From NCBI GenBank assembly GCA_963664405.1, contig OY761158.1, positions 2,624,001-2,688,000 of the forward strand: a stretch of DNA of 64,000 bases. The letters are read 5' to 3'. Below are positions 13,059 to 28,213 of the stretch, one piece after another (the first letter of the stretch is position 1; every line of letters begins with the position of its first letter). Position numbers and translations under genes: made by a program. The DNA comes from Thermoanaerobaculia bacterium. GTDB lineage: Bacteria > Acidobacteriota > Thermoanaerobaculia > Multivoradales > Multivoraceae. The notes beneath the pieces were generated by a model. It was not told the origin of the DNA. It made no database searches and saw only the letters and a program-made list of their open reading frames with translations.

Positions 13059-13388
13059 TTTATGACTCAAGGTGTCTCAAAGTTCTTGACAGGTTCCGGA
13101 CCGGGAGAGAGTTCTAACGATCTACCTCTTTCACTATCTTTTGAACGACCGGGCTCGAGCGAAGTATGTATTCCCGCTAGTGACTCGTTCTACGATTTCG
13201 GGAATCAGTCAGTCGAACCTAATGAAGGTGAAGATCGTGCTGCCTCCCCTCGACCTCCAACACCGCTTCGCCGCGATCGTCGAATCCGTCGAGCAACAGA
13301 AGGCCAGCCAGCGCGCCCACCTGGACGAACTCGACACCCTGTTCGCCTCTCTACAATCCCGCGCCTTCCGTGGGGACCTCTGAGCCCC

Positions 13389-16300
13389 ATGGAAATCTCA
13401 GCAAACTTCGCGTTCCTGGAGCAGGAGTTTCCACATGCGGCGGAGAGCGGGAGCTATGCCGAGCGGCACGTCTACGGTGACCCCCGAGCCTCGTGCTTCC
13501 ATGCCCGGCACGCGCTGGAGCGTCTGGTCATGCGTGTCTACAAGGTCGACAAGACCTTGAGTCCGCCGAAGATCACGAACCTGGACGGCTACCTCAATGA
13601 GACTGCCTTCCGCGACCTCGTGCCCGAGGTCATCTGGCAGAAGGCCGAGTACATCCGGCAAGCGGGCAACGTGGCGGTACACGGAAAGAAGATGCCCAAG
13701 CCGGAGACTGCGCTGGACATCGTGCGGGAGCTTTCGCACGTCTTCTACTGGGCGGGCCGCACGTACCTGCGGAAGGGGGCGGAAAGCCTGGCCGGGAAGA
13801 CCTTCGACGAATCACTCGTCCCGAAAGTGGAACCGGCAGCTGTGCCGGCCAGCGTCGAGGAACTGGACGCTCTGAAGGCGGAGCGGGACGCTGCCGAGGA
13901 GGCTCACAAGGAGCTAGAGAGGGAGCTGGAGGCATTGCGTGTACGGCTCGCGGCGATCAAGGCGGAGAACGAAGCGGTCCCCGAGGCCCACGACTGGAAC
14001 GAGGACAAGACTCGACGGCTGCTCATCGATCTCGCGTTGAACCGAGCGGGTTGGTCGCTTGGTGGGCCACACGACCGGGAATACAAGGTCACGGGGATGC
14101 CCAATGCGCAGGGCGTGGGCTATGCCGACTATGTCCTGTGGGGAGACGACGGCAAGCCGCTGGCGGTGGTGGAGGCGAAGAAGACCACCGTCGACCCGGC
14201 GGTGGGCCAGCAACAGGCGAAACTCTACGCCGACTGCCTGGAGGCGATGCACGGCCAGCGTCCGGTCATCTTCTACACCAACGGCTACCAGACATGGCTG
14301 TGGGACGACCTCGCCTACCCGCCGCGGACCGTCGCGGGGTTCTATAAGAAGGACGATCTGGCGTCCCTGATCATCCGCCGAGCCCAGCGCGCCCCGCTCG
14401 ATGTGTCGCAGGTGAAGGACGACATCGTCGAGCGTTACTACCAGAAACGGGCCATCGGCAGCATCGGCGAGCAGTTCGCGCAGACGCGACGCAAGGCGCT
14501 GCTGGTGATGGCCACCGGCAGCGGCAAGACACGCACGGCGATCGCCCTGGTGGACCTGCTGCAACGGGCGGGCTGGGTGAAGCGGGCGTTGTTTCTGGCC
14601 GATCGGGTGTCGTTGGTCAACCAGGCGGTGAGTGCCTTCAAGGCGCACCTGCCGGAATCGAGCCCGGTGAACCTGGTGACCGAAAAGGACAAGGCGGGCC
14701 GTGTCTACGTCTCCACCTATCCGACGATGATGGGACTGATTAACGAGACGAAGGGCAACGAGGCGCGCTTCAGCGTCGGGCACTTCGATCTCGTCATCAT
14801 CGACGAGGCGCACCGCTCGGTCTACCAGAAGTACGGCGCGATCTTCCGGTATTTCGATTCGCTCTTGGTCGGCCTGACCGCGACGCCTAGCGAGTACGTC
14901 GACCGCAACACCTACACCCTCTTCGACCTGAAGCCGGGCGTGCCGACCGACGCCTACGAGCTAGAAACTGCGGTGGCGGACGGCTTCCTCGTGCCGCCGC
15001 GAGCGGAGCAGGTGGACCTCAAGTTCCCCCGCGAGGGTATCGACTACGATTCGCTCAGCGACGAGGAGAAGGAAGAGTGGGAGAGCCTCGACTGGGGCGA
15101 TGACGTCGACGAGAACGGCCTTCCCGAAAGGGTCAACGCCTCCGCCATCAACAGCTGGCTTTTCAACAAGGACACCGTCGACAAGGTGCTCCAGCACCTG
15201 ATGGAGCACGGCCACAAGGTCGAAGGCGGCGACCGGCTGGCCAAGACGATTCTCTTCGCCCGCAACCACGAGCACGCGAAGTTCATCGAGGAGCGCTTCA
15301 ATCACCATTACCCACACCACAAGGGACACTTTGCGCGGATCATCGACCACTACGCCAAGTATCCGCAGAGCTTGCTCGACGACTTCTCGCAGAAGGACAA
15401 GGTGCCGCACATAGCGATCTCGGTGGACATGCTCGATACCGGCATCGACGTACCCGAGGTGGCGAACCTGGTCTTCTTCAAGCCCGTCTACTCGAAGATC
15501 AAGTTCTGGCAGATGATCGGACGAGGCACGCGTCTGTGCCCGGCGCTGTTCGGGCCCGACGACGACAAGCGGGACTTCCGTATTTTCGACTTCTGCTTCA
15601 ACTTCGACTTCTTCCATGAGAATCCCGACGGCAGGGAGAGCCGCGTTGTTGTCCCGCTCGGCACACGGCTCTTTCGGTACCGGCTGCAGCTTCTGGACCA
15701 TGTTCATAGGACGCCGGACCTGGCCCCGGATGCCAAGCTCGCGGGGTCCCTGAGCACGGAGCTTCATCGGGAAGTGGCGGCGATGAACCGCGAAAACTTC
15801 ATCGTCAGGATGCACCTGGAGGCAGTGGACCGCTTCCGGGAGCGCAAAGCATGGGAACAGCTCAGCGAGGCTGACCGTAAGGCCCTGCACCGTGAGGTCG
15901 CGGGCCTGCCCAGCGAGATCGAGAACGATGACATCGAGTCGCGAATGTTCGATCTCACAGCTCTCCGCATGCAGCTTGCCCTGGCCGAGGGCGACCTGGC
16001 CGTCGTCGAGGCTTACCGGCAGCGGATGGTCGAGATCGCCATGCTGCTGGAGGAGAAGACCACGATCCCTGCAGTGAAGGCCCAGCTCGCGTACCTGGCC
16101 TCCATCCAGGAGAGCGGCTTCTGGGAGGAGATCGACCTCGACGGTCTCGAAGATCTGCGCCTGCGGCTACGTGGGCTGGTGCGTTTCCTCGACAAGAAAA
16201 AGCGCAAGGTCGTCTACACAGATTTCCAGGACGAGGTCCTGGGCAGGCGTGATGAAGCGTTTGTCTCCATGCCGAAAATGACCGGCGCGCTGTATGAGAA

Positions 16301-16802
16301 GAAGGTCAAGAGCTACCTCGACAACCATCTCAACCACATCGTGATCCACCGGCTTCGGACCAACCGGCCGCTCACCAGCGCCGACCTGAAGGGGCTGGAG
16401 TCGACTCTGGTCGAGATCGGTGAAGGGGATGGGAAGATGCTCCTCTCCGGCTTGCTGGCCCGTAGCGAGGCCCCTTCGTTGGCCCACTTCGTGCGCAGCC
16501 TGGTGGGCATGGACCGGTCCGCCGCGCAGTCGGCGTTCTCCGAGTTCTTGAACGATCGGAGTCTCACTGTCCCACAGATCCGCTTCGTCGAGATGGTGAT
16601 AGACCAGCTCACGGCCCGAGGCGTAATGGAGGCATCGGCTCTCTACGAACCGCCCTTCACCAACCTGCACGCCGGGGGGCCGGAGGCGTTGTTTGGCGGA
16701 AAGAAAAACGTGATCGAAGGGATTTTCGACACACTGAAGGCGGTCCAGTCGGGGTTGATGGTGAAGGCAGGGTCAACGCCAGGAAGAGTCGCCCTGCTGT
16801 GA
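13389..16802 (+). CDS. hsdR: Type I restriction endonuclease subunit R (EcoAI/EcoEI-like, N-terminal DUF4145-like domain)
   Basis: ADYVL...VEAKK nuclease motif, MATGSGKT, DEAH, QMIGRGTR; EcoEI-type C-terminus. Confidence 0.93.
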   Translation: MEISANFAFLEQEFPHAAESGSYAERHVYGDPRASCFHARHALERLVMRVYKVDKTLSPPKITNLDGYLNETAFRDLVPEVIWQKAEYIRQAGNVAVHGKKMPKPETALDIVRELSHVFYWAGRTYLRKGAESLAGKTFDESLVPKVEPAAVPASVEELDALKAERDAAEEAHKELERELEALRVRLAAIKAENEAVPEAHDWNEDKTRRLLIDLALNRAGWSLGGPHDREYKVTGMPNAQGVGYADYVLWGDDGKPLAVVEAKKTTVDPAVGQQQAKLYADCLEAMHGQRPVIFYTNGYQTWLWDDLAYPPRTVAGFYKKDDLASLIIRRAQRAPLDVSQVKDDIVERYYQKRAIGSIGEQFAQTRRKALLVMATGSGKTRTAIALVDLLQRAGWVKRALFLADRVSLVNQAVSAFKAHLPESSPVNLVTEKDKAGRVYVSTYPTMMGLINETKGNEARFSVGHFDLVIIDEAHRSVYQKYGAIFRYFDSLLVGLTATPSEYVDRNTYTLFDLKPGVPTDAYELETAVADGFLVPPRAEQVDLKFPREGIDYDSLSDEEKEEWESLDWGDDVDENGLPERVNASAINSWLFNKDTVDKVLQHLMEHGHKVEGGDRLAKTILFARNHEHAKFIEERFNHHYPHHKGHFARIIDHYAKYPQSLLDDFSQKDKVPHIAISVDMLDTGIDVPEVANLVFFKPVYSKIKFWQMIGRGTRLCPALFGPDDDKRDFRIFDFCFNFDFFHENPDGRESRVVVPLGTRLFRYRLQLLDHVHRTPDLAPDAKLAGSLSTELHREVAAMNRENFIVRMHLEAVDRFRERKAWEQLSEADRKALHREVAGLPSEIENDDIESRMFDLTALRMQLALAEGDLAVVEAYRQRMVEIAMLLEEKTTIPAVKAQLAYLASIQESGFWEEIDLDGLEDLRLRLRGLVRFLDKKKRKVVYTDFQDEVLGRRDEAFVSMPKMTGALYEKKVKSYLDNHLNHIVIHRLRTNRPLTSADLKGLESTLVEIGEGDGKMLLSGLLARSEAPSLAHFVRSLVGMDRSAAQSAFSEFLNDRSLTVPQIRFVEMVIDQLTARGVMEASALYEPPFTNLHAGGPEALFGGKKNVIEGIFDTLKAVQSGLMVKAGSTPGRVALL

Positions 16803-17022: not shown

Positions 17023-17590
17023 CCCCAATTCGCGAATAAATCAGGCGGCTCGGAGGGCTTTAGCGACTCTTTGGAAGTCTTGTTGAGCGGCGGCTGAAGT
17101 GCCGAGGTCGAGGGTGATTCGGCCAGCAGGGTGAAGGAGGACGCCGGCTCGGCCGAGGAGTTTGAATCGCAGGGTGTGGATGGTTTCGAAGCGATGCAGG
17201 GTTCTCCGTTTGCGACTCCGTGATCGGGGTTGCGGACGTGCCGCGACCTGAAAGGACCGGGTGAGGTTGAAAGCGAGCACGCTGAGGATCTGCCAAGCGG
17301 CGTTGGCACCGGCTTTCAGGCTCGGGACACAGTTGAAAGCGAAGCCGTTGCGCAGCTCGGCGTACGCCTTCTCGTGCGTTCCCCGACCGTTGAGGAAGTG
17401 CCAGAGATTCAGGCCGTTGAGGGACTTGTTGGTGGTGATCGCCGAGTACTCGTAGTGGCCGTCGTCGGGATCGACCAGGTCCAGCTGGAAGTTCTTGCGG
17501 GTCTCGTAGGCCACTCGCTTGCGGTACAGCACGATGCGGCGTAGCTGATTCCAGGGAGCAACCCGTGTGCGGGTCTCGCAGTAGCTCACC
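17023..17590 (-). mobile_element. IS1380-family remnant (transposase C-terminus plus one end)
   Basis: YEYSAITTN...NGRGTHEKAYAELR...ANAAWQILSVLAFNL; ends TTATTCGCGAATTGGGG. Confidence 0.8.
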
Positions 17591-17768
17591 GAAGACTTGC
17601 CGGGCTCTCTGCTCCTGGTCTTTGGTCAATTGTCGTTGGCAGGCGAGAGGGTGCTGGCGGTGCTTCGCGCCCTATCGACCGGGCCCTCGGTGCAAGCTGT
17701 GTGAGGGTCGCCGAAAACCCGCAAAAGATGCGTCTCGACTCTCCGAGAAGCGGGCCTGTTATCGGCGG

Positions 17769-18122
17769 TCATAAAGTGCGGGATTCCGGCTGTGTAGTGG
17801 CGCTTTTGGTTTCATCCTCCTCGAGAAGGGACCGGTGCCGAAGGAGGATGTAGCGGACGTATTGAGGGTCGAGCTCGTCGTTGGTCAGGGCTCGATGTAC
17901 GGAGCGGTAGTAGGCAAGTGAGTGAATCTGCGGCAGCGGATCGGTGCTGAGGCGCCGTCGCAAGGTGGCGAGTCGAATGGCATGGGCAAGCTCTTCGAGG
18001 GGGACGTTGGCTTGATAGAGCTTGTCGGCGATGGCCCAGTCTCGGCGCCGAGGTCTAGGCGGGGTTTTAGGAGCGTCGAGGTAGAGGCGGATGAGCTCGG
18101 CGCGATACTCCTGTCGGATCAC
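17769..18122 (-). CDS. IS21-A downstream accessory protein, function unknown
   Basis: GTGA overlap with the istB stop; homologous to 25793-26149 (Y...L..LY...P.TP...D......L...I.SLAY...Y..Y). Confidence 0.75.
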   Translation of the reverse strand: MIRQEYRAELIRLYLDAPKTPPRPRRRDWAIADKLYQANVPLEELAHAIRLATLRRRLSTDPLPQIHSLAYYRSVHRALTNDELDPQYVRYILLRHRSLLEEDETKSATTQPESRTL

Positions 18123-18892
18123 GAGGTCTTCGCACTGCGCCGTCGAGGGCGAGTGCCGCTTCGGCGGGCCGAAGCGCGCTTCTTGGCGTGCTCCTTGGAC
18201 TCCTTGAGCCGATAGGAATCGCCCTCGATGTTGACGAGCTCGCAGCGATGGACGAGGCGATCGACGATGGTGACGACGGTAGTAGCGTTGGGGAAGACCT
18301 CTCCCCATTCTCCAAAGGACTTGTTTGTGGTGATGAGAAGGGACTTATTTTCGTACCTGCGGGAAACGACCTCGAAAAGTAGATCGGCGTGGCGCGTGTC
18401 GTAGGACAGATATCCGAGCTCGTCAATGCAGAGCAGGGATGGGCGCGCAAAGAGCGCGAGCTTGCGCTGAAGGCTGGTCGAGGAGTCTTGTTCGGCGAGG
18501 GTGTTGAGCAGCTCCGAGGCGGTGAGGAATCGGGCGGTGGCTCCACGTAGTACGGCTTGATGGGCGAGATTCTTGGCAATGAGCGTCTTGCCGATGCCGT
18601 TTGGCCCTATCAAGACAGCGTTGTGCCCTCGGGCGAGCCACTCGAGCCGAAAGAGATCTTCGATCTGCTCGCGGTCGATCTTCTTGGGCCAATTCCAGTC
18701 GAAGTCGGCCAGCGGCTTGAAGGTGCCGAGCCGGGCCCGACCCAGGCGTCGCTCCAGTCCGCGACGGGCTCGCTCCTGCTCTTCCCAGTCGAGCAGGTCG
18801 GGGAGCCAGGGTTGGTTGGCGACCTCATCCCAGTGGGCTAGGAGGCCATGGAGTTTCAGGGCTGTGGCACGCTCTTGGTCGGTGTTGTTCAT
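18119..18892 (-). CDS. istB: IS21-A IstB AAA+ ATPase
   Basis: GPNGIGKT, LLCIDELGY, ITTN, IVDRLVH, GDSYR. Confidence 0.93.
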   Translation of the reverse strand: MNNTDQERATALKLHGLLAHWDEVANQPWLPDLLDWEEQERARRGLERRLGRARLGTFKPLADFDWNWPKKIDREQIEDLFRLEWLARGHNAVLIGPNGIGKTLIAKNLAHQAVLRGATARFLTASELLNTLAEQDSSTSLQRKLALFARPSLLCIDELGYLSYDTRHADLLFEVVSRRYENKSLLITTNKSFGEWGEVFPNATTVVTIVDRLVHRCELVNIEGDSYRLKESKEHAKKRASARRSGTRPRRRSAKTS

Positions 18893-19197
18893 TCGTCGTC
18901 CTCCTCGTCGTTGGGGTTGTCGTAGTCGGCCAGTGCATGGGGAGTGACCGTGAGCTCCCGGATCCTGGGATCGTCGGGGAGCTGGACAGGCAGCGCGGGT
19001 AGGAGTCCCCGCTCGTGGCGCCGACGATCGAGGATGAGTCGCACCGCTTCGGGATGCGGGGTGAGAGTGAGCACGATAATCGATGGGAATGTTGGCCATT
19101 CTGAGCACGGTAGGTGAGGGAAGGGTGTTTGGTCCCTCAAGTAGTGTGCTCAAGACTAGGTCCGTCGGCATCATCCCCGCCGAAGGCGGGCCGTCGG

Positions 19198-20561
19198 GGA
19201 TCCGTCCCGAATGCTGTGGAAATTGAGAATGGCGTAACCTCCTAGTGGTCAAACACATCGCCGGTTAGGGCGAACGGAGGATTACGCCATGGTGGAGAAT
19301 ATCAACGAGGAAGGGGAAGCTGCACGCTTCCGTCAGGACATTCGTTCGTTGTTACGCGAGCGTGTTCGTGCGGCGATCGAGATCACACTCGAGGAAGAGC
19401 TGTCCGAGGCGCTGGGCTGCAGCGCCTACGAGCGTTCAGGCGAGCGTGCGGGCTATCGCAACGGCAAGCAGCGTCGTCTGATCACGACGGCGTGTGGGTC
19501 GAAGGAACTGGACATTCCACGAGGACGGCTAGTCGGCGAGGATGGGGCCAGCGTAGAGTTTCGCAGTGCGATCGTGCCGCGTTACGCTCGTCGTACGCAG
19601 GAGGTCGATGACGCGATCCTGGGTGCGTATCTGGCTGGCGCTAACAGCCGCCGGATCAAGAAGGCATTGGCTCCGCTGCTGGGTGAGGAGCACCTGTCCA
19701 AGAGCGCAGTTTCGCGTGTGGTGTCTCGGCTGAAGGAGCTTTTTGCTCGCTGGAGTGAGCGCGATCTGTCGGAGGAGTCCTACGTGCTTCTGTTTCTCGA
19801 TGGCTTTCACCTGAAGGTCCGCTTGGCCCGTCGAGTGGTCTCGGTACCGGTGCTGGTGGTGCTGGGTGTGACTCCGGACGGCACCAAGGTGCTGGTGGCC
19901 TTACGTTTAGCCGCGAGCGAGGCCGCCGAGCACTGGAAGTGGCTGATCGAGGATCTGAAGGCCCGAGGTCTTCAGGCTCCGCGCTACCTGGTCACGGATG
20001 GCCACAAAGGGCTGGCCGCGGCGCTGAAGGCTTGGCCTGAGGTCAAAGTCCAGCGCTGCGTCCAACACAAGTGGGAGAATCTGAAGAAACACTGCCCGGT
20101 GCACGCACACGACGAGCTGCGGCGTGACTGGCACTCGATCGTACGAGCCGAGGACGCGGCACAGGCCCGCAAGGCCTACGCGGCGTTCGTCACCAAGTGG
20201 TCGCGACTAGTCCCGGCGGTGGCTCGCAGCCTTGAGGAGGCAGGGTTCCAGCTACTGACCTTCTACGAGCTCCCCAAATCGCTGTGGAGTTCGGTGCGCA
20301 CGACCAACGCTCTGGAGAACCTGAACCGCGAGTTTCGTCGCCGCACTAAAACCCAGGGCTCCTTTGCCACCGAGGCTGCCGGCGTCACGCTCCTCTGGGG
20401 GCTCGTCGCCTTCGGGCAGATACACCTGCGAAGGATTAACGGCTACCGGGCGCTTCAGCTCCTGCTCGAGGTTGAGAGGGCCGCGTAAACGGTAGGATTT
20501 AGCAAAAGACGACTCGGAGGACTACGCCTGAACCCATTTCCACAAAAAACGGGACACATCC
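19198..20561 (+). mobile_element. IS256-family insertion sequence
   Basis: IRs GGATCCGTCCCGAATGCTGTGGAAAT and ATTTCCACAAAAAACGGGACACATCC; 8-bp TSD GCCGTCGG (19190-19197 and 20562-20569). Confidence 0.92.
19289..20488 (+). CDS. IS256/Mutator transposase
   Basis: GYRNG, LFLDG, VTDG, QRCVQH, TTNALENLNREFRRR. Confidence 0.95.
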   Translation: MVENINEEGEAARFRQDIRSLLRERVRAAIEITLEEELSEALGCSAYERSGERAGYRNGKQRRLITTACGSKELDIPRGRLVGEDGASVEFRSAIVPRYARRTQEVDDAILGAYLAGANSRRIKKALAPLLGEEHLSKSAVSRVVSRLKELFARWSERDLSEESYVLLFLDGFHLKVRLARRVVSVPVLVVLGVTPDGTKVLVALRLAASEAAEHWKWLIEDLKARGLQAPRYLVTDGHKGLAAALKAWPEVKVQRCVQHKWENLKKHCPVHAHDELRRDWHSIVRAEDAAQARKAYAAFVTKWSRLVPAVARSLEEAGFQLLTFYELPKSLWSSVRTTNALENLNREFRRRTKTQGSFATEAAGVTLLWGLVAFGQIHLRRINGYRALQLLLEVERAA

Positions 20562-22198
20562 GCCGTCGGGGCCTGACGCGCAGTCCATACTTGTTCTTTC
20601 GCTGATCACGCTGAACGAGGGCTGACACGCAGCGATGGGATGAACGGCACGCTATCTGATGGGCGATCGAGGCGGTTCGCCGAGCTTCCATCGCGCTTGG
20701 GCCCCTGGTTGCGCCCTCAGATACCTTGAACGGAACACCCATTCCCACCAGACAACGTGATCGGGTTTCCTCGAATCGCCATCAAATACTGTGAACAAGA
20801 CCGTCTGAGGCAAGTGGCAGCGAAACGCAGCTTCGGCTAAGTCCTTCAAAAGGCTACGCGACCATCACTTATCGTGATCGGACCGCCATCGATTATCGTG
20901 CTCACTCTCACGGGGATCCTTTTTCGAGGGCCTCGTCGATCGCCACTGCAAGCTCCCTGGGTCCACTCTCGGCAAGGAGCTCGAGGAGTCTGGCGACGGC
21001 ACTCGAGAGTCGTCTCTGCCGTCGGGCCAGCTCCCGCAGGAGCTCTTCGGCCTGGGGCACCGTACGCAGCAGGTAGTCCTGGCCGCGCTGTGTACGTGCC
21101 TCGCGTTTCTGTCGTTCCAGCTCTTCTAGGTGACGGGGGTCTTCGATGATCTGGCCCTTGTCCCAGGACCTTGTGTGCTCGGCGATGAGCTGCTCGCGAT
21201 CGAAGATGCGCACACGCTCCGGGTCTGCGGCGATCTGTAGCGAGCGGGCGATGCGATCATGCGGGATCGAGTAGCGATTCGCATCGAAGCTCAGGTAAGG
21301 AGTGCGCCGCGTGATCCGCTCGACCCATTCGTGGCAGGGGAAAGGCTGCGCCGGAAGGCTCACGAGATGAGAGCGCTCCTCGAGATAGGCCTGCTCGACG
21401 GTGCGACGCCGGTCCTGGGGCCACGGGCGCTTCATCGCTCGGTCGCGACACCACTCCAGAGCGTCCCGGTTCAGCGCTTCTCTGTCCCAGGTGCGACGCA
21501 GCGGAAAGAAGGAAGTTCTGACAAAACGAATGGCTCGTTCGACGCGACCTTTTTCATTTCCTCGTCTGGGAGCAACGGGCCTTGGATCAAAGCCGTAGAA
21601 GTCGGCGAGCTCGAGAAGCCGTGGATGAAAGCGAATGGCGCTGCGGCGCCGCTCGAGCACAGCGCTGCGCAGATTGTCGTAGAGGTGGATCTTGGCCAGA
21701 CCCTCAAAGAAGGAGAAGGCGAGGACATGCCCGGTCAGGAAGCTCGGCAGACGAGCGTCGTAGAAGAAGTGCAGAAAGAGAGCTCGCGAGTAGCTCAGCA
21801 CCATGACGAAGGCGTAGAGACGGCGCTCTCCGCCATCGACCTTTCGGGTGCCGAAGTGAGCCCAGTCCACCTGGGCCTGTTCGCCGGCAAGCGTACGGAG
21901 CACAAAGAAAGCCTCAGGCGCCTTGCGGGGGCGCAGGCCGAGCTCGGCAATGCAGTGGCGGAAGTGATCCTCCCCACCGGGATAGTCACGCTTCTTGACC
22001 ATCTCGTAGAGCACGCTCGCCGGCAGCTCCGGGTAGCGCTCAAAGACTTCCTGGATGAAGGGGACGAAGCGATCGACCATGGACGCTCGTCGCGGCGATC
22101 GAGGCCGGCTCAGCCCTTCGCGTCGAAGGACTCGAGTGACCGTCGAGTGATGGATTCCCAGATGGCGGGCGATCGTGTTGCGCCGCCAGCCCTCCGAC

Positions 22199-22690
22199 TC
22201 ATAGAGACGGCGGATCTCGGCGGCGAGCTCGGGAGAGATCATCCCGCGCCCGCCTGCGCACCGGGCGTACTCGGCGCGATCGCAAGAAGTCGTGGCGGAC
22301 AATCGGCTCGCAAGGATGGCGGCACAGCCTGCAGAGAAGCTCCTCGTTCCGACCTCCAACGGACAAGCCTTGCAAAAACAACGGAAGCGGCGCGGTGGGC
22401 CATGACGCCACCGTCGCAGGGCAGCCCCCGGTGCGGCAACTGTGATGCGTCACTTTCTTTGAGCCTTGCTGCTTGCAATCTCGATAGGCCTGCTGACGAC
22501 GAGCATGCAAGCGGCGCCCTCGCGGCGTCTGCTGATAGCGACGCCCGGCCCCGCGAAGGCTGTGGCGCCGAGCCTCATCCCGGCACTCCGGCGTGCAATA
22601 ACGATGGCCGCGATCGCACCAAGAGCAAATGTAGACAGCTTGCCGGCAACGATCGCAAACGAAACGGCGACAATCGGGACGGCGGCGCAC
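22199..22690 (-). CDS. IS21-A upstream Cys-rich (zinc-finger-like) accessory protein
   Basis: GGAGG RBS plus GTG; CxxC-x6-CxxCDRGxRYC, RYQ..RGR..HA.RQ..YR, KVTH, distal CxxC; homologous to 23126-23521. Confidence 0.75.
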   Translation of the reverse strand: MRRRPDCRRFVCDRCRQAVYICSWCDRGHRYCTPECRDEARRHSLRGAGRRYQQTPRGRRLHARRQQAYRDCKQQGSKKVTHHSCRTGGCPATVASWPTAPLPLFLQGLSVGGRNEELLCRLCRHPCEPIVRHDFLRSRRVRPVRRRARDDLSRARRRDPPSL

Positions 22691-23125
22691 GGCCCAGGCC
22701 TCCTTCGGCCTGGACTTCGCCACCCGCAGGCGGAATACTCCCTCTTCTGGGGCGTCATACCCCAGGTGTTGATGGCTGCGAGAAAGCGCATCCCGTTGGC
22801 TGCGAGCGCAGTTTCCGGGATGGAGTGAGCTGAGGGCTTCGCGACCGCGGGAAAGCTAGGCCTTCTTCAGGAAGGGCGGCATCATCCCGCCGGAACGGCG
22901 GTCCGGGTGCGTGGTCCCGGCGGCGTGTTTGCGGTCGGAAGAGATGCGTGAGTCGGTGTAGGGCTTTGCAGTGCGGGCTCTGCTCTGATAGAGCAGGCCG
23001 ACCAGAGACGGCGAGAGCCCGGGAAAGCGAAGTAGAAAACGCCCCGGGCTCTGCCCCAAACCGCAGCATTAGCTGCGCTTGCAGTATGGCAGAGAGTCGG
23101 GGTCGTCGTCGAATGGGAGGCGACG

Positions 23126-23521
23126 ATGCGACCGGACTACCGACTCTTCGACTGTGCTCGATGCCGTCGGCGTATCTCGCTGTGCTCGCACTGTGACCGT
23201 GGCCAGCGTTACTGCCGGGCTTGTGCTCTGGTGGCTCGTCGGGAATCGACTCGGGCGGCCGGCCATCGGTACCAGCGAAGCCTCCGAGGTCGGCATTGTC
23301 ATGCCGCCCGTCAGGCCCGCTACCGTCGGCGCCAGCGCGAGCGGGCAGAGAAAGTGACGCATCAGGGTACCCCAGGCGGTACTTCGGGGAGGACACTGTG
23401 TCGGATCGAGACTCCGAGGCGCGAAGTGCGCTACGACCCGAGGAATCCGCGATGCATGCAGTGTGGAGAGGCCTGCCGAGAGTTTGTGCGAACGAGCTTT
23501 CGTCGTTGCCGACGGAGATAG
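23126..23521 (+). CDS. IS21-B upstream Cys-rich accessory protein
   Basis: GGAGG RBS; CARC..CSHCDRGQRYCRAC..KVTHQG..CMQCGEAC. Confidence 0.78.
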   Translation: MRPDYRLFDCARCRRRISLCSHCDRGQRYCRACALVARRESTRAAGHRYQRSLRGRHCHAARQARYRRRQRERAEKVTHQGTPGGTSGRTLCRIETPRREVRYDPRNPRCMQCGEACREFVRTSFRRCRRR

Positions 23522-23525
23522 GGGC

Positions 23526-25036
23526 GTGATCGACGCACAGCTGCGCGGGGAGATCCGTCGTCTGTTCCTGGTCGAGAAGTGGAAAGTCGGCACGATCGCT
23601 CGACAGCTACAGCTGCACCCCTCAACCGTGCGCCGGGCGCTGGAGAAGTCCGGCGTGCTACCCCAGCAGCGACGAGGGAGGATGATCGATCCTTACCTGC
23701 CGTTCATCGAGCAGGTGCTCGGGACCTACCCACGACTGCCGGCGAGCCGTCTCTACACCATGGTGGTGGAGCGCGGCTATCCAGGAGGCCCGGATCAGTT
23801 TCGCCACCTGGTGGCCTCGATGCGACCGAAGCCCCAGCGCGAGGCGTTTCTCTCGCTGCGCATGCTGCCAGGAGAGCAGGCGCAGGTCGACTGGGGCCAC
23901 TTCGGTCGGCTCCGCGTCGGCCGGGCACATCGTCGGCTCTATGCCTTCGTCTTCGTGCTGTCGTTCTCGCGCACGGTCTTCGTGCACTTCACCCTCGACA
24001 CTCGTCTCGAAACCTTCTTGCACGCTCACCAGCTGGCCTTCCACCTACGTCGACGGCGTCGTCAGGACCGTTCTGTACGACAACCTGCGAACCGCGGTGA
24101 TCGAGCGGCAGGGAACCGCGGTGCGCTTCCATCCCGTGCTGCTCGATTTCGCCAGCCACTACGGCTTCCTTCCCACCGTCGCCGCGGTGGCTCGGGGAAA
24201 TGAAGAAAGGCCGCGTCGAGCGCGCAATCCGCTTCCTGCGAAGCTCGTTCTTCGGCGCCCGAACGGTGAGCGATTTGGATCGTCTGAATCGGCAGGTCCT
24301 GGAATGGTGCCAGAGGTCGCAGCGCAGACCCTGGCCGCAGGACCGACAGCGAACCGTGAAAAGCGCCCTGGCCCAGGAACGACCTCGACTGCTTGAGCTT
24401 CCCGGAGACGACTTCGAAACCGACCTGCGACTGGAGATCAAGGTCAGAAAGACGCCGATCGTGCGCTTCGACCTCAACGACTACTCGGTGCCGCACAGTC
24501 ATGTGCAGAGGACCGTCACGCTCCTCGCCAGCGAGCATCGGGTGCGGATCCTCGATGGCCAGGAGCTCCTCGCCGAGCACCCTCGCTCGTACTCCCGGGG
24601 CGAGCAGATCCTCGATCCTCAACACCTCGAGGAGCTCCTCGCTCACAAACGCAGGGCCCGACGACACCGGGGCTTCCATCGGCTGTTTTCCGCTGTGCCT
24701 CGATGCGAAGAGCTGATGCAGCAGCTCGCCGAGCGAGGCGAGAACCTCGGAACGCAGACCGCCGGCCTGCTCCGACTCCTGCGCCAGTACGGCCCCCAGC
24801 GACTCGACAAAGCCGTGCGCGAAGCGCTCCTGAACCACGCACCGCGATTCCAGTCCGTCCGGCTCCTACTCGAACGGCACCAGCGCGGCCTCGGTCAGCC
24901 CCCGGCTTTACCGGTGCCGCTCAGCCAGGAGCTCCAACAGCGAGATCTCTCCGTGAGACCGCACAACCTCGAGGACTACGACCAACTTGGAGGCAACGAC
25001 GATGGCCCGACCCAGGAAGAGTCCAACGATCCCTGA
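23526..25036 (+). CDS. istA: IS21-B IstA transposase (two frameshifts near 24045 and 24203; possible pseudogene or read errors)
   Basis: GEQAQVDW; YDNLRT and KGRVER lie in shifted frames. Confidence 0.88.
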
Positions 25037-25796
25037 CGAACCACTACGAGAGCTCGCCCGATCCCTCGGCTTCTACGCCCTCGTCGACGACTGGGGCACC
25101 TACCGAGAACAGCCCTGGCTCGAACAGCTGCTGCGCAAAGAAGAGGCCGAGCGCAAACGGCGCAGCCTCGAACGGCGCATCCGCACCAGCCGCGTCGGGC
25201 TCTTCAAGAGCATCGCCGACTTCGACTTCTCCTGGCCCCAGCGCATCGACCGCGAGCAGATCCAGGATCTGCTCACCCTCCAATTCCTCGACGACATCAC
25301 CAACGTCATCCTCCTCGGACCCAACGGTGTCGGCAAGACCATGATTGCCAAGAACCTCCTCTACCAGGCGCTGCAACGAGGGGCCACCGCCAGCTTCGTC
25401 ACCGCCTCCGACATGCTCAACGATCTCGCCGTCCAGGAAACCCCCTCGGCGCTCCAGAGAAGGCTCTCCAAATACACCCGACCCTCGCTTTTGGCAATCG
25501 ATGAGCTCGGCTATCTCTCCTACGACCACCGCCACGCGGATCTCCTCTTCGAGGTCGTCTCCAGGAGATACGGCAACAAGCCCATTCTTCTCACCACCAA
25601 CAAGCCCTTCGCCGAATGGGCCGAGGTCTTTCCCAACGCCTCCTGCGTCGTCACTCTCGTCGATCGACTCACCCACCACGCCGAGATCGTCAAGATCGAG
25701 GCTAACTCCTATCGCCGCAAGGAGGCCAAGGAGGCTGCTGAAAAAAAGGCCAAGGACCGCGCCAAAAGGCGGAGCGCAGCACGACGACGCTCATGA
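25002..25796 (+). CDS. istB: IS21-B IstB ATPase
   Basis: GPNGVGKT, LAIDELGY, LTTN, VDRLTH, SYR. Confidence 0.93.
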   Translation: MARPRKSPTIPDEPLRELARSLGFYALVDDWGTYREQPWLEQLLRKEEAERKRRSLERRIRTSRVGLFKSIADFDFSWPQRIDREQIQDLLTLQFLDDITNVILLGPNGVGKTMIAKNLLYQALQRGATASFVTASDMLNDLAVQETPSALQRRLSKYTRPSLLAIDELGYLSYDHRHADLLFEVVSRRYGNKPILLTTNKPFAEWAEVFPNASCVVTLVDRLTHHAEIVKIEANSYRRKEAKEAAEKKAKDRAKRRSAARRRS

Positions 25797-26149
25797 CCCG
25801 AAGCCACTATCGGCGCCAGCTCCTCCGCCTCTATCGACTCCTTCCCGACACCCCGCACCGCTTCCACCACGGCGACCGCGTCATCGTCGACCAGCTCTTC
25901 GACCAAGACCTGCCTCTCACCGTCCTCCAGGCCGCCCTCCTCCTCGGCTCCGCCCGACGCGCATGCCGAGATCCGCGCCTACCAAAGCTCCAGCCCATCC
26001 GATCCCTCGCCTACTTTCTCCCCATCCTCCGAGAACTCCCCACGACGCCACCCCCCGAGGGGTACCTCGACTATCTGCGCCACACCCTGAGTCACGCCTC
26101 GCGGGGACAAAAAACCGACTCGCAGCCAACTAAGTGCGCTTTCTCGTAG
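25793..26149 (+). CDS. IS21-B downstream accessory protein, function unknown
   Basis: ATGA overlap with istB; homologous to 17769-18122; its stop lies inside the right IR. Confidence 0.78.
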   Translation: MTRSHYRRQLLRLYRLLPDTPHRFHHGDRVIVDQLFDQDLPLTVLQAALLLGSARRACRDPRLPKLQPIRSLAYFLPILRELPTTPPPEGYLDYLRHTLSHASRGQKTDSQPTKCAFS

Positions 26150-26604
26150 CCGGTAACACCAGGCCTTCCGGCGGTGGGCGGTCACCTTGCTTGGAGTCGC
26201 CCCCGCCGGTCTCCCCATACTCCCACCTGCCACGCTGCTCGCGCGCTCGCGCGCGACGATGATGCTGAAGAGACTCTCAGCAGGAAACGCGGTCAGAAAG
26301 CCGGGATCGCGCGCTTCTTAAGCGCCGTTGACAGGCGTGTAACAGTCTGAAGGGGGATCGGGACCAGGCGTATCTAAGGGCTAGAATGGGCGGTAGGATT
26401 TAATGTGGCTATCAAGTATTATTTGGGGATTATATACGAGAGTGCCGAAGGTTTGGGAGGTGAAGTGTGAGTGATTCAGGGCATCCCGACTACGTTGCAG
26501 AGGCTCTGGGGGCCTTCATGCGTGAACAGCCGCGGTGGACGTACTGGCCGCGTGAGCGGTTGACCGTCCGATGGGCCGCCCGGTAGCTCACCATGAGGTC
26601 GAGC

Positions 26605-27258
26605 CTAGACGGAACCTTGTGAGTCGTGGTCGTGCGCACACCGTGCCACGAACAGCCCCTCAATCGAAGCTCGACGAAACCTGCTCAACAAGACCAACTT
26701 CGCGGCTGCAAAGTGGGCTCCGGTGGTGAGCACGTCGTCGACGATGACAATCACAGTCGGTTCTGGCGTTGAGCGTGTTTCCTCAATGCGGTAGCGTTGT
26801 GCGATCTCCCGTGGCCGGGGCCGCATGCCAGTCGGCTTTTCGTGGGCAGGGACGGTGCTCTCGTCCTGAACGAGAAGTTCGCTCACGTTCCACGCCTGAT
26901 CATCAGGCCGAGCAACGCGAAGCATTCGCGTTAGTCGGTCGTCATAGAGAGGGTCGCCGGGTGCCTTCGACGGCGGCATCGGTACGAACGCATGGCCCTC
27001 TGGGGGAACTGGAACTACGGCACGCCGGAACGCCGTGGCGATCGTGTCAATCGCATCCTCCTTGTATTTCCACTCAGGTCTCCCTTGCCGGCTCATCGAC
27101 TTCTTGAAGTTCGAGATCAGGCTGTTGGTCGAGCTGTAGGCAAAGCCTCGTCCAGCGACGTACTCGCCGAGGAAGTAACAGCGGTCCTCGCTGATGAGCC
27201 AGCGGTGGTCGGCCCGCGTCAGCTCGTCGACTAGTGTGAAGCGATCAGGCAAACTCAC
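26605..27258 (-). CDS. Phosphoribosyltransferase-fold (ComF-like) protein
   Basis: VPMPPSK and the PRPP-binding motif IVIVDDVLTTGAH; overlaps the dprA-like gene. Confidence 0.85.
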   Translation of the reverse strand: MSLPDRFTLVDELTRADHRWLISEDRCYFLGEYVAGRGFAYSSTNSLISNFKKSMSRQGRPEWKYKEDAIDTIATAFRRAVVPVPPEGHAFVPMPPSKAPGDPLYDDRLTRMLRVARPDDQAWNVSELLVQDESTVPAHEKPTGMRPRPREIAQRYRIEETRSTPEPTVIVIVDDVLTTGAHFAAAKLVLLSRFRRASIEGLFVARCAHDHDSQGSV

Positions 27259-28213
27259 GTCGGATGTCGGCGTAGTCCTGGACCCTAACCGCTCCCTTTT
27301 CCGCTAGGCGTGCAGGCCACGTCAACTGCGGGTTCCGAAAGCAACTGTCGAGGACAAACAGCTTCCGTCCCTGGTGCAAGGCTGCGCGTGCCTGAGTCAG
27401 CGTGCCCGAGGTCTCGCCCGCTTCAACGATGATAGACGCCTCCGAAAGCGCTGACATCACTACGTTGCGCTCCGGAAAGAACAGGCGGTTGCGGCGATAG
27501 TCTTGCGACTCGTACCGCTCGAGGGGAACCGGACTCACGACCAGAAAACGCTCGGCAATACGACGCTGCAGGTCTGCGTGAGCCCTCGGATAGACGTGCG
27601 AAAGTGGTGTGCCGATGACCGCGATTGTTCGCCCGCCGCACTTGATGGCCGTCTCGTGGGCGACCCGATCAATGCCGGCCGCCAACCCCGAGATGATGGT
27701 GAAGTCGTCGGCGACGAGGTCGCGGACCAGATTCCGGGTGCATGCACACCCATTCTTCGACGGCTTCCGGGTTCCGACCACCGCGACCGACCGCGACGCT
27801 ACTAGGTCCCAACATCCTTGGTAGTAGAGAAGCTCAACCGGATGGGCCGCATCCCGCAGTTTCGTCGGGTACTCGCTGGCACCGTTCACGCTTACGCCAA
27901 ACCGCGGAATCTCGGCTTTGGCGAATCGCTCCTTGACGGCGGCAGCGTGGCTAAGAGCGTCCTCCTCTGACACGAAGTGCGACGGCACACGCTGGGGATG
28001 CTCGGCAAACCGCTTCGCGAGTGACCTGAAGGTGGTGCGCGGATCGGACCACAGGACTTCATACGCTCCCATCTCTCGGAACGGGGAAATTGCCCGCTCC
28101 TCAAACGAGGATTCAACGGGAAGAGGTAGCGTTCCGCTGGCGTCTTTGCCGACGACTGACATTCCCACCGCGGAGACTCTAGCAGATGCGGCCACTAGCG
28201 AACCTGCTCTCAT
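27245..28213 (-). CDS. DprA/Smf-like protein (alternative start 28162)
   Basis: VAVVGTR, IISGLAAGID, FPERNVVMSALS, VEAGETSGT; no C-terminal winged helix. Confidence 0.9.
   Translation of the reverse strand: MRAGSLVAASARVSAVGMSVVGKDASGTLPLPVESSFEERAISPFREMGAYEVLWSDPRTTFRSLAKRFAEHPQRVPSHFVSEEDALSHAAAVKERFAKAEIPRFGVSVNGASEYPTKLRDAAHPVELLYYQGCWDLVASRSVAVVGTRKPSKNGCACTRNLVRDLVADDFTIISGLAAGIDRVAHETAIKCGGRTIAVIGTPLSHVYPRAHADLQRRIAERFLVVSPVPLERYESQDYRRNRLFFPERNVVMSALSEASIIVEAGETSGTLTQARAALHQGRKLFVLDSCFRNPQLTWPARLAEKGAVRVQDYADIRREFA

Follow-up and report, generated by a model that had tools for sequence, protein, structure and literature searches.

Two nested IS21-family elements from a Thermoanaerobaculia bacterium belong to a clade with additional genes on either side of istA and istB

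Can the transposition unit of an IS21-family insertion sequence comprise more than the transposase gene istA and the ATPase gene istB? The question is raised by a stretch of 64,000 nucleotides (nt) from the genome of a Thermoanaerobaculia bacterium (GenBank assembly GCA_963664405.1, contig OY761158.1, positions 2,624,001 to 2,688,000 of the forward strand), which we call the window. Here two elements, A and B, each have a Cys-rich open reading frame (ORF) before istA, which we call ZnF, and an ORF of about 118 amino acids (aa) after istB, which we call O4. A sequence-only reading of the window had taken A and B to represent an IS21 subgroup with two dedicated accessory proteins. Our analysis favours, with a probability of roughly 0.6, the interpretation that they are members of a large, old IS21-family clade in which the transposition unit consists of four genes, with two extra working parts. 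The earlier proposal is supported, the extra genes being conserved, syntenic, coupled to the core genes and under purifying selection. It needs two qualifications: O4 is neither universal in the clade nor exclusive to IS21.

Three nested insertion sequences occupy positions 17757-26333 of the window: A, an element of the IS256/Mutator type, and B. Element A is split twice, by the IS256-type element in its istA and by B in its 5′ leader, 175 bp from its left end. The features, with window coordinates, are as follows.

17757 to 26333, minus strand: element A, IS21 family, 3326 bp net (the length of its uninterrupted copies), with TGT..ACA ends.
17769 to 18122, minus strand: O4 of A, 117 aa, with a GTG start in a GTGA overlap with the istB stop; matches the O4 hidden Markov model (HMM).
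18119 to 18892, minus strand: istB of A, 257 aa; PF01695, E 1.2e-59.
18889 to 19061, minus strand: 3′ part of istA of A, severed by the IS256-type insertion (copy comparison).
About 19062 to 20910, plus strand: insertion sequence of the IS256/Mutator type within istA of A, with 26-nt perfect inverted repeats and a transposase gene at 19289-20488 (PF00872, E 2.2e-87).
20911 to 22242, minus strand: 5′ part of istA of A (protein start MISPEL...), from the ORF, Pfam and comparison with intact copies.
22199 to 22690, minus strand: ZnF of A, about 163 aa, with a GTG start at 22690, GGAGG 8 nt upstream and a 44-nt overlap with the istA start.
22767 to 26158, plus strand: element B, IS21 family, 3392 bp here and 3390 bp in other copies, nested in the leader of A.
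22767 to 22806, plus strand: left inverted repeat (IRL) of B (inverted-repeat search).
23126 to 23521, plus strand: ZnF of B, 131 aa, isoelectric point (pI) 11.5, 12 Cys, with GGGAGG 6 nt before the ATG.
23526 to 25036, plus strand: istA of B, broken in the window copy by 1-bp insertions at 24044 and 24203.
24987 to 25796, plus strand: istB of B, 269 aa from a TTG (ATG at 25002); PF01695, E 1.8e-62; NF038214, 210.6 bits.
25793 to 26149, plus strand: O4 of B, 118 aa; its start and the istB stop overlap as ATGA, and its final codons fall within the right inverted repeat (IRR).
26119 to 26158, plus strand: IRR of B (inverted-repeat search).
26159 to 26333, minus strand: leader and IRL of A (its left end), cut off from the remainder of A by B (copy comparison).

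The sizes and coordinates first read from the window, about 3326 bp net for A and 3392 bp for B, hold against the other copies in the genome. B has 21 further full-length copies in the same 6.78-Mb genome that are 99.9% identical and fix its boundaries: its sequence starts TGTTGATGG and finishes GGTAACA, giving TG..CA ends. A perfect 5-bp duplication is present in 18 of the 21 B copies having both ends, and is CCAGG for the window copy. Element A, with eight genomic copies, has TGTCAACGGCG... at one end and ...CGCCGATAACA at the other; seven of the eight copies have a 5-bp target duplication, and the window copy has none. That the two elements have different inverted repeats and diverged proteins was also correctly read: the repeats of B, 40-45 nt at 80% identity, differ from those of A, and the proteins of A and B share 40% (ZnF), 50% (IstA), 60.5% (IstB) and 34% (O4) identity. 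The two insertions in istA of B, each of which shifts the frame, are private to the window copy, being missing from the other 21 copies and from a contig of a public DNA run. With istA of B frameshifted and A interrupted, the window copies of both elements are dead. The families are intact elsewhere in the genome, which contains recently multiplied members of each (L011 and L012), and both have been recently active.

The core genes place A and B in the IS21 family. IstA of B scores 245 bits against the IS21 model NF033546 (cut-off 160), IstB of B passes the IS21 model NF038214 at a cut-off of 200 bits, and Pfam finds rve and Mu-transpos_C_2 domains in IstA of both elements. In intact copies ZnF, IstA, IstB and O4 measure 131, about 502, 269 and 118 aa in B, and about 163, about 499, 257 and 117 aa in A. 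The ribosome-binding sites claimed for ZnF are present in both elements at the positions listed above. A search for promoters of the sigma-70 type inside B found none.

We assessed the conservation of the four-gene order by scanning genomes, one per species, with purpose-built HMMs and keeping the best 80 loci of each scan. Relatives in a protein collection clustered at 90% number 30 for O4 and 232 for ZnF, and a ZnF profile search returned 3857 representatives at 50% identity (E ≤ 1e-3). When the scan was seeded with O4 (218 of 242 stretches confirmed, 80 kept), IstB was found directly upstream of O4 in 79 of 80 loci, and the complete order ZnF-IstA-IstB-O4 in 57 of the 64 loci having more than 2900 nt upstream. 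When it was seeded with ZnF (242 of 249 stretches confirmed, 80 kept), IstA adjoined ZnF in 76 of 77 loci, the single exception being a split ZnF. The third scan was seeded with IstA, so that the seeding cannot favour ZnF. In the 80 loci kept, ZnF lies upstream of IstA on the same strand in all 78 that have at least 450 nt upstream, and no more than 200 nt away in 73 of them. The linkage of both ORFs to this IstA clade, which the sequence-only reading had offered for checking, is thus borne out.

The distribution of ZnF follows the phylogeny of IstA. In an unbiased sample that took the one best IstA of IS21 type per genome from 151 Acidobacteriota genomes, ZnF is present at 4 of 30 loci; one of the loci without it is from an unpublished genome (L183). 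A quick, unrooted FastTree phylogeny of 135 IstA rows gathers every row that has ZnF into a single clade of 112 (Shimodaira-Hasegawa-like support 99), and the 23 rows without ZnF, from the Acidobacteriota sample, fall outside it. Inside the clade one row is labelled as lacking ZnF, L159, which has a split ZnF; four others are truncated by their contig. ZnF marks one whole IstA clade and probably had a single origin. The hosts of the clade include Acidobacteriota, Pseudomonadota, Planctomycetota, Myxococcota, Verrucomicrobiota and other phyla, and cultured carriers of ZnF are found in Aromatoleum, Mesorhizobium, Burkholderia, Cupriavidus and Methylotuvimicrobium. Standard annotation mostly overlooks the gene: in most plasmid hits no annotated feature lies beneath the ZnF match. 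On the plasmid of Aromatoleum aromaticum EbN1 we confirmed that the ZnF ORF is entirely unannotated, and on that of Methylotuvimicrobium alcaliphilum 20Z only a short hypothetical ORF of 64 aa is annotated at ZnF.

Both extra ORFs behave as coding genes coupled to their neighbours. The RTGA overlap between the istB stop and the O4 start that had been noticed in the window (ATGA in B, GTGA in A) recurs in 74 of 79 loci. Measured from the ZnF stop to the start of IstA, the median distance is -4 nt, and 186 of 202 loci have a value from -60 to +30 nt. The ratio of non-synonymous to synonymous substitution rates (dN/dS), which had been suggested as a check for both ORFs, was computed on 18 disjoint locus pairs. 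Its median is 0.25 for ZnF (below 0.5 in 17 of 18 pairs) and 0.16 for O4 (below 0.5 in 17 of 17), beside 0.10 for IstA and 0.06 for IstB. Judged by these ratios, ZnF and O4 are both under purifying selection.

The features of ZnF suggest a protein that binds nucleic acid. Eight Cys are invariant in the alignment (C10, C13, C20, C23, C30, C33, C110 and C113) and form CxxC pairs at 10/13, 20/23, 30/33 and 110/113, of the kind found in zinc ribbons. A conserved basic stretch reads RYQ...RGR..HA.RQ..YR.R...KVTHQG, and ZnF of B has 38 Arg and Lys among its 131 residues. The AlphaFold model (predicted local distance difference test, pLDDT, 80) has strands at 5-9 and 16-20 in a beta-hairpin zinc ribbon, as well as a long helical hairpin and, at the C terminus, a CxxC; from these we predict two zinc sites formed by the eight conserved Cys and an Arg-rich helical hairpin. 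ZnF has no Pfam family at E ≤ 0.01, no NCBIfam family and no match in PDB sequence profiles at E < 1; in a Pfam scan at E ≤ 5, weak matches to Rhodanese_C occur in 16 of 36 members (best E 0.0065). Fold searches with the model gave no match either, the best Foldseek E value being 4.6 and the best VIA Z score 4.2, for the helical hairpin only. Its strong basicity, likeness to a zinc ribbon, coupling to istA and presence throughout the clade lead us to propose tentatively that ZnF would be produced together with IstA as its nucleic-acid-binding partner. Its site of action would be the element ends or the leader, where it may either help the transpososome to assemble or throttle it.

O4 is a basic five-helix domain in a confident AlphaFold model (pLDDT 90, predicted template modelling score 0.80). 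Nine alignment columns are invariant, among them R55, R56, S71, Y74 and Y91, and the motifs PIRSLAYF and GYLDYLR are kept. Like ZnF, O4 has no Pfam family at E ≤ 0.01, no NCBIfam family and no PDB sequence-profile match at E < 1, and in the ESM Atlas both proteins match only clusters of hypothetical proteins. Foldseek found nothing at E ≤ 0.001 for the O4 model in the PDB or a viral library. A wide VIA-align search returned mostly C-terminal helical subdomains of AAA+ proteins among its top 50 (Z 4.6-7.1, 65-82 aligned residues, root mean square deviation 2.5-4.6). We considered whether O4 might be a lid missing from IstB and dropped the idea, because a figure legend in PMC11208146 gives the C-terminal helices of IstB with sensor II. 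At one locus (L295, G230:C6) IstB and an O4 domain share a single open frame of 538 aa with a linker of about 120 aa. In its sister copies O4 has an N-terminal extension of roughly 130 aa and a separate frame; as these copies lack the fusion, we make no use of it as an argument.

O4 also occurs with a different ATPase. The same genome has a second four-gene transposon, in five copies, composed of a helix-turn-helix (HTH) ORF, an rve transposase gene, an AAA_22 ATPase gene and, last, an O4 homologue (example copy L282 at G000:C1:536900-541700, identified by domain content; four more copies in the genome). The homologue and the ATPase gene share an 8-nt overlap; alignment with O4 of B gives 41% identity over 78 aa (E 2e-15). 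O4 relatives were found in 19 of 401 sampled Acidobacteriota genomes. Since O4 follows two different transposition ATPases, IstB and AAA_22, its place of action may be the ATPase-bound target complex. It would act on or with that complex to modulate either the capture of the target or the hand-over that follows strand transfer, an assignment in which our confidence is short of even.

The position that O4 occupies 3′ of istB is variable across the clade, being taken by O4, by an unrelated protein of 64-75 aa or by a DUF3991-Toprim protein. Of the 80 IstA-seeded loci, 2 have O4 there, 43 have the short protein and 24 have neither; 11 loci are too short to tell. O4 is the occupant in A, B and most acidobacterial members, and the short protein is typical of a proteobacterial sub-clade, occupying a nested clade of 48 rows in the IstA tree. 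We tried O4 and the short protein as relatives and found them not detectably related (hhalign probability 0.13%). Some alphaproteobacterial members have after istB a protein of 290-300 aa with DUF3991 and Toprim_2 domains (L218:4788-5681, L226:4794-5663; also L244, L254 and L273). The short protein has a C-terminal tail of acidic residues and then (P/L/I)(P/E)F, as in ...DPELPF, ...TDPPF and ...DDKIEF (L113:7678-7893, L100, L110, L125 and others). This acidic tail may resemble the C-terminal tip of the bacterial single-stranded DNA-binding protein (SSB), a recruiter of replication and repair proteins. In the unrooted quick tree O4 is present in both major halves of the IstA clade, including the basal lines that hold A and B, and the short-protein clade is nested; on this distribution O4 looks ancestral in the slot and would have been replaced later. 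Because the slot is exchangeable, we infer that whatever protein fills it is an adaptor and does not belong to the catalytic core.

Several observations weigh against a four-gene transposition unit with two extra working parts. O4 cannot be essential to IS21 chemistry, because unrelated proteins fill its slot in other members. Seven of the 64 O4-seeded loci lack ZnF or a whole IstA, and these appear truncated. Constraint on ZnF is weaker than on istA and istB: a dN/dS of 0.59 is reached by one disjoint pair, and one very close pair gives 1.52 at a dS of 0.025. Expression of ZnF and O4 was not seen in the contigs of three metatranscriptome runs; the only exact contig from the RNA libraries is 247 nt long and lies inside istB, and such contig data neither show nor exclude expression. 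The AAA_22 context of O4 is confined, among the 401 sampled genomes, to this genome and one near-identical to it, the latter being all that a locus scan with the second-transposon homologue returned; elsewhere the neighbour of O4 is IstB. The best fold match of O4, the AAA+ lid at Z 7.1, is under the level that the tool treats as meaningful for helical bundles. Across Pfam, NCBIfam, the PDB and the fold searches no recognisable relative, by sequence or by fold, emerged for either protein, and the roles proposed for them are drawn from position, charge and coupling. Both window copies are inactive.

The alternative that survives best makes ZnF purely a repressor of ist expression or transposition, serving as a brake on copy number, much as small DNA-binding proteins encoded upstream do in IS1 or IS3-type elements. 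The istB-linked protein would tie the strand-transfer product to host replication or repair, with O4, the short protein and the Toprim protein as alternative recruiters for priming or restart. ZnF is indeed in the position of a regulator and very basic, the slot of alphaproteobacterial members holds a Toprim/DUF3991 protein, and that of other members the 64-75-aa protein, whose acidic tail is closed by PF. Moreover, the weak VIA-align matches of O4 include DnaD domains (Z 5.2-5.5) and a helicase-loader inhibitor, and IstB is related to loaders of the DnaC type by weak NCBIfam matches. However, the structural likenesses are all below the reliable level, and the SSB-like character of the acidic tail is putative, as would be any link to replication proteins. 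We consider this alternative unlikely rather than far-fetched.

A further possibility is the boldest, and we find it quite doubtful. ZnF would be a required DNA-binding subunit of the transpososome, the gene coupled to istB an exchangeable adaptor from the ATPase-bound strand-transfer complex to host replication or repair, and O4 a portable module that also serves ATPases of the TniB type. The orientation towards host replication and repair is suggested by the variety of the slot proteins, which are O4, a short acidic-tailed protein and a primase-like one. If true, it would show how elements of the IS21 type finish transposition, a step that lies outside the two-protein in vitro systems.

O4 might instead be a target selector that stands where tniQ stands after tniB and steers the ATPase to preferred sites. 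It is always the next gene after an AAA+ ATPase gene, in two transposon families, and the order tniA-tniB-tniQ is parallel. Against this, the duplicated 5-bp targets, 18 for B and 7 for A, are all different and no consensus emerges from the 30-nt flanks, for which reason we do not favour this role. TniQ is also absent among the Pfam families listed at E ≤ 5 for 26 O4 members and 36 ZnF members (25 of 26 families for ZnF); a weak Pfam match to TnsD sits in the HTH of IstA, outside ZnF. We regard target selection by O4 as very unlikely.

Insertion sequences can carry passenger genes, and neither ZnF nor O4 has a known function, so the two could in principle be hitch-hiking cargo that has no role in transposition. 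ZnF, however, is clade-wide in the IstA tree with a single inferred origin, is never missing upstream of IstA in the 78 informative loci and is not free-standing, given its place beside IstA in the ZnF-seeded loci. The start-stop coupling with istA and istB is conserved, and O4 recurs next to a second transposition ATPase. The sequence-only reading had argued against chance cargo, and we agree, holding cargo to be highly improbable. That the ORFs are no genes at all, their frames being kept by high G+C or by transposase binding sites in the ends, is scarcely credible: the genome is G+C-rich with many long spurious frames and the last O4 codons lie in the IRR, but dN/dS is well under 1, Cys and aromatic columns are invariant at 40-50% identity, the AlphaFold models are confident, and ribosome-binding sites and RTGA coupling are present.

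Several further genes lie around the elements. A DDE_Tnp_1_4 transposase fragment (17041-17589, minus strand) abuts the right end of A, which together with the missing duplication of A suggests a rearranged graveyard of insertion sequences. Just past the left end of A, at 26605-28213 on the minus strand, lies a gene for a DprA-family protein (PF02481, E 3e-57; weak SLOG match), adjoining an ORF of 217 aa that has no Pfam match. At 13062-16802 on the plus strand is a gene for an HsdR-like subunit of type I restriction, 1246 aa long, that has a DUF4145 domain at its N terminus. Elsewhere in the genome, two copies of B (G000:C1:5444193 and 6746428) lie 5 nt apart in the same repeated target (...GCGGCGATCTGGGGCACCCT...), and their shared target points to another repeat family.

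How do A and B compare with known systems? As in canonical IS21 elements (IS21 and IS5376), a DDE transposase, IstA, is followed directly by the coupled AAA+ ATPase IstB, and the elements have TG..CA ends. The 5-bp duplication of A and B agrees with the family, in which target duplications range from 4 to 8 bp. Unlike canonical IS21, A and B have four genes rather than two inside their inverted repeats, in 3.3-3.4 kb: istA has a conserved gene of zinc-binding type before it and istB a coupled small gene after it, both of which canonical IS21 lacks. IS21 is the structural model for transposases under a dedicated AAA+ ATPase, and the structural papers treat it as a two-protein system (PMC10122671, PMC11208146, PMC12486865). 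Term searches in those papers gave neither zinc nor an accessory ORF. In full-text literature searches a zinc-finger gene or a fourth gene in IS21 elements was likewise undescribed, and single elements may be registered in ISfinder or TnPedia. The clade is thus apparently a branch of the IS21 family not found described in print. In this large branch the core genes have been accompanied across many phyla by two more proteins, one of which, O4, also occurs in a transposon that uses a different ATPase family. ZnF and O4 are candidates, open to testing, for a part in regulation, in target capture or in processing after integration.

Small DNA-binding regulators encoded upstream of the transposase are familiar from IS1 (InsA) and the IS3 family (OrfA). 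ZnF is like them in being small and basic, in its zinc-binding motif and in the place of its gene just before the transposase gene. It differs in that we found no sequence relation to them and no sign of a programmed frameshift fusion with IstA, because at the ZnF-istA junction the two frames range from overlapping by 53 nt to lying 72 nt apart.

The second transposon resembles A and B in having the O4 homologue last, overlapping the ATPase gene, and a small ORF of DNA-binding type before the transposase. It is unlike them in its rve/HTH_32 transposase and AAA_22 ATPase, and in that its first gene encodes an HTH protein, not ZnF. We know it by domain content; Tn6049 of Cupriavidus metallidurans CH34 is described as a 3.5-kb element with 12 copies and an ATPase called gspA (PMC2864759).

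The order of genes in A and B is, finally, comparable to that of more elaborate transposons. O4, at 118 aa, has no Pfam match to TniQ or TnsD, and no target preference is apparent in the insertions of A and B. Transposons of the Tn5053/Tn402 type have the gene order tniA-tniB-tniQ. Both in these and in Tn7, with TnsC and TnsD/TniQ, the DDE transposase and the AAA+ regulator come before another protein, one that acts through the ATPase, and it is this order that A and B share.

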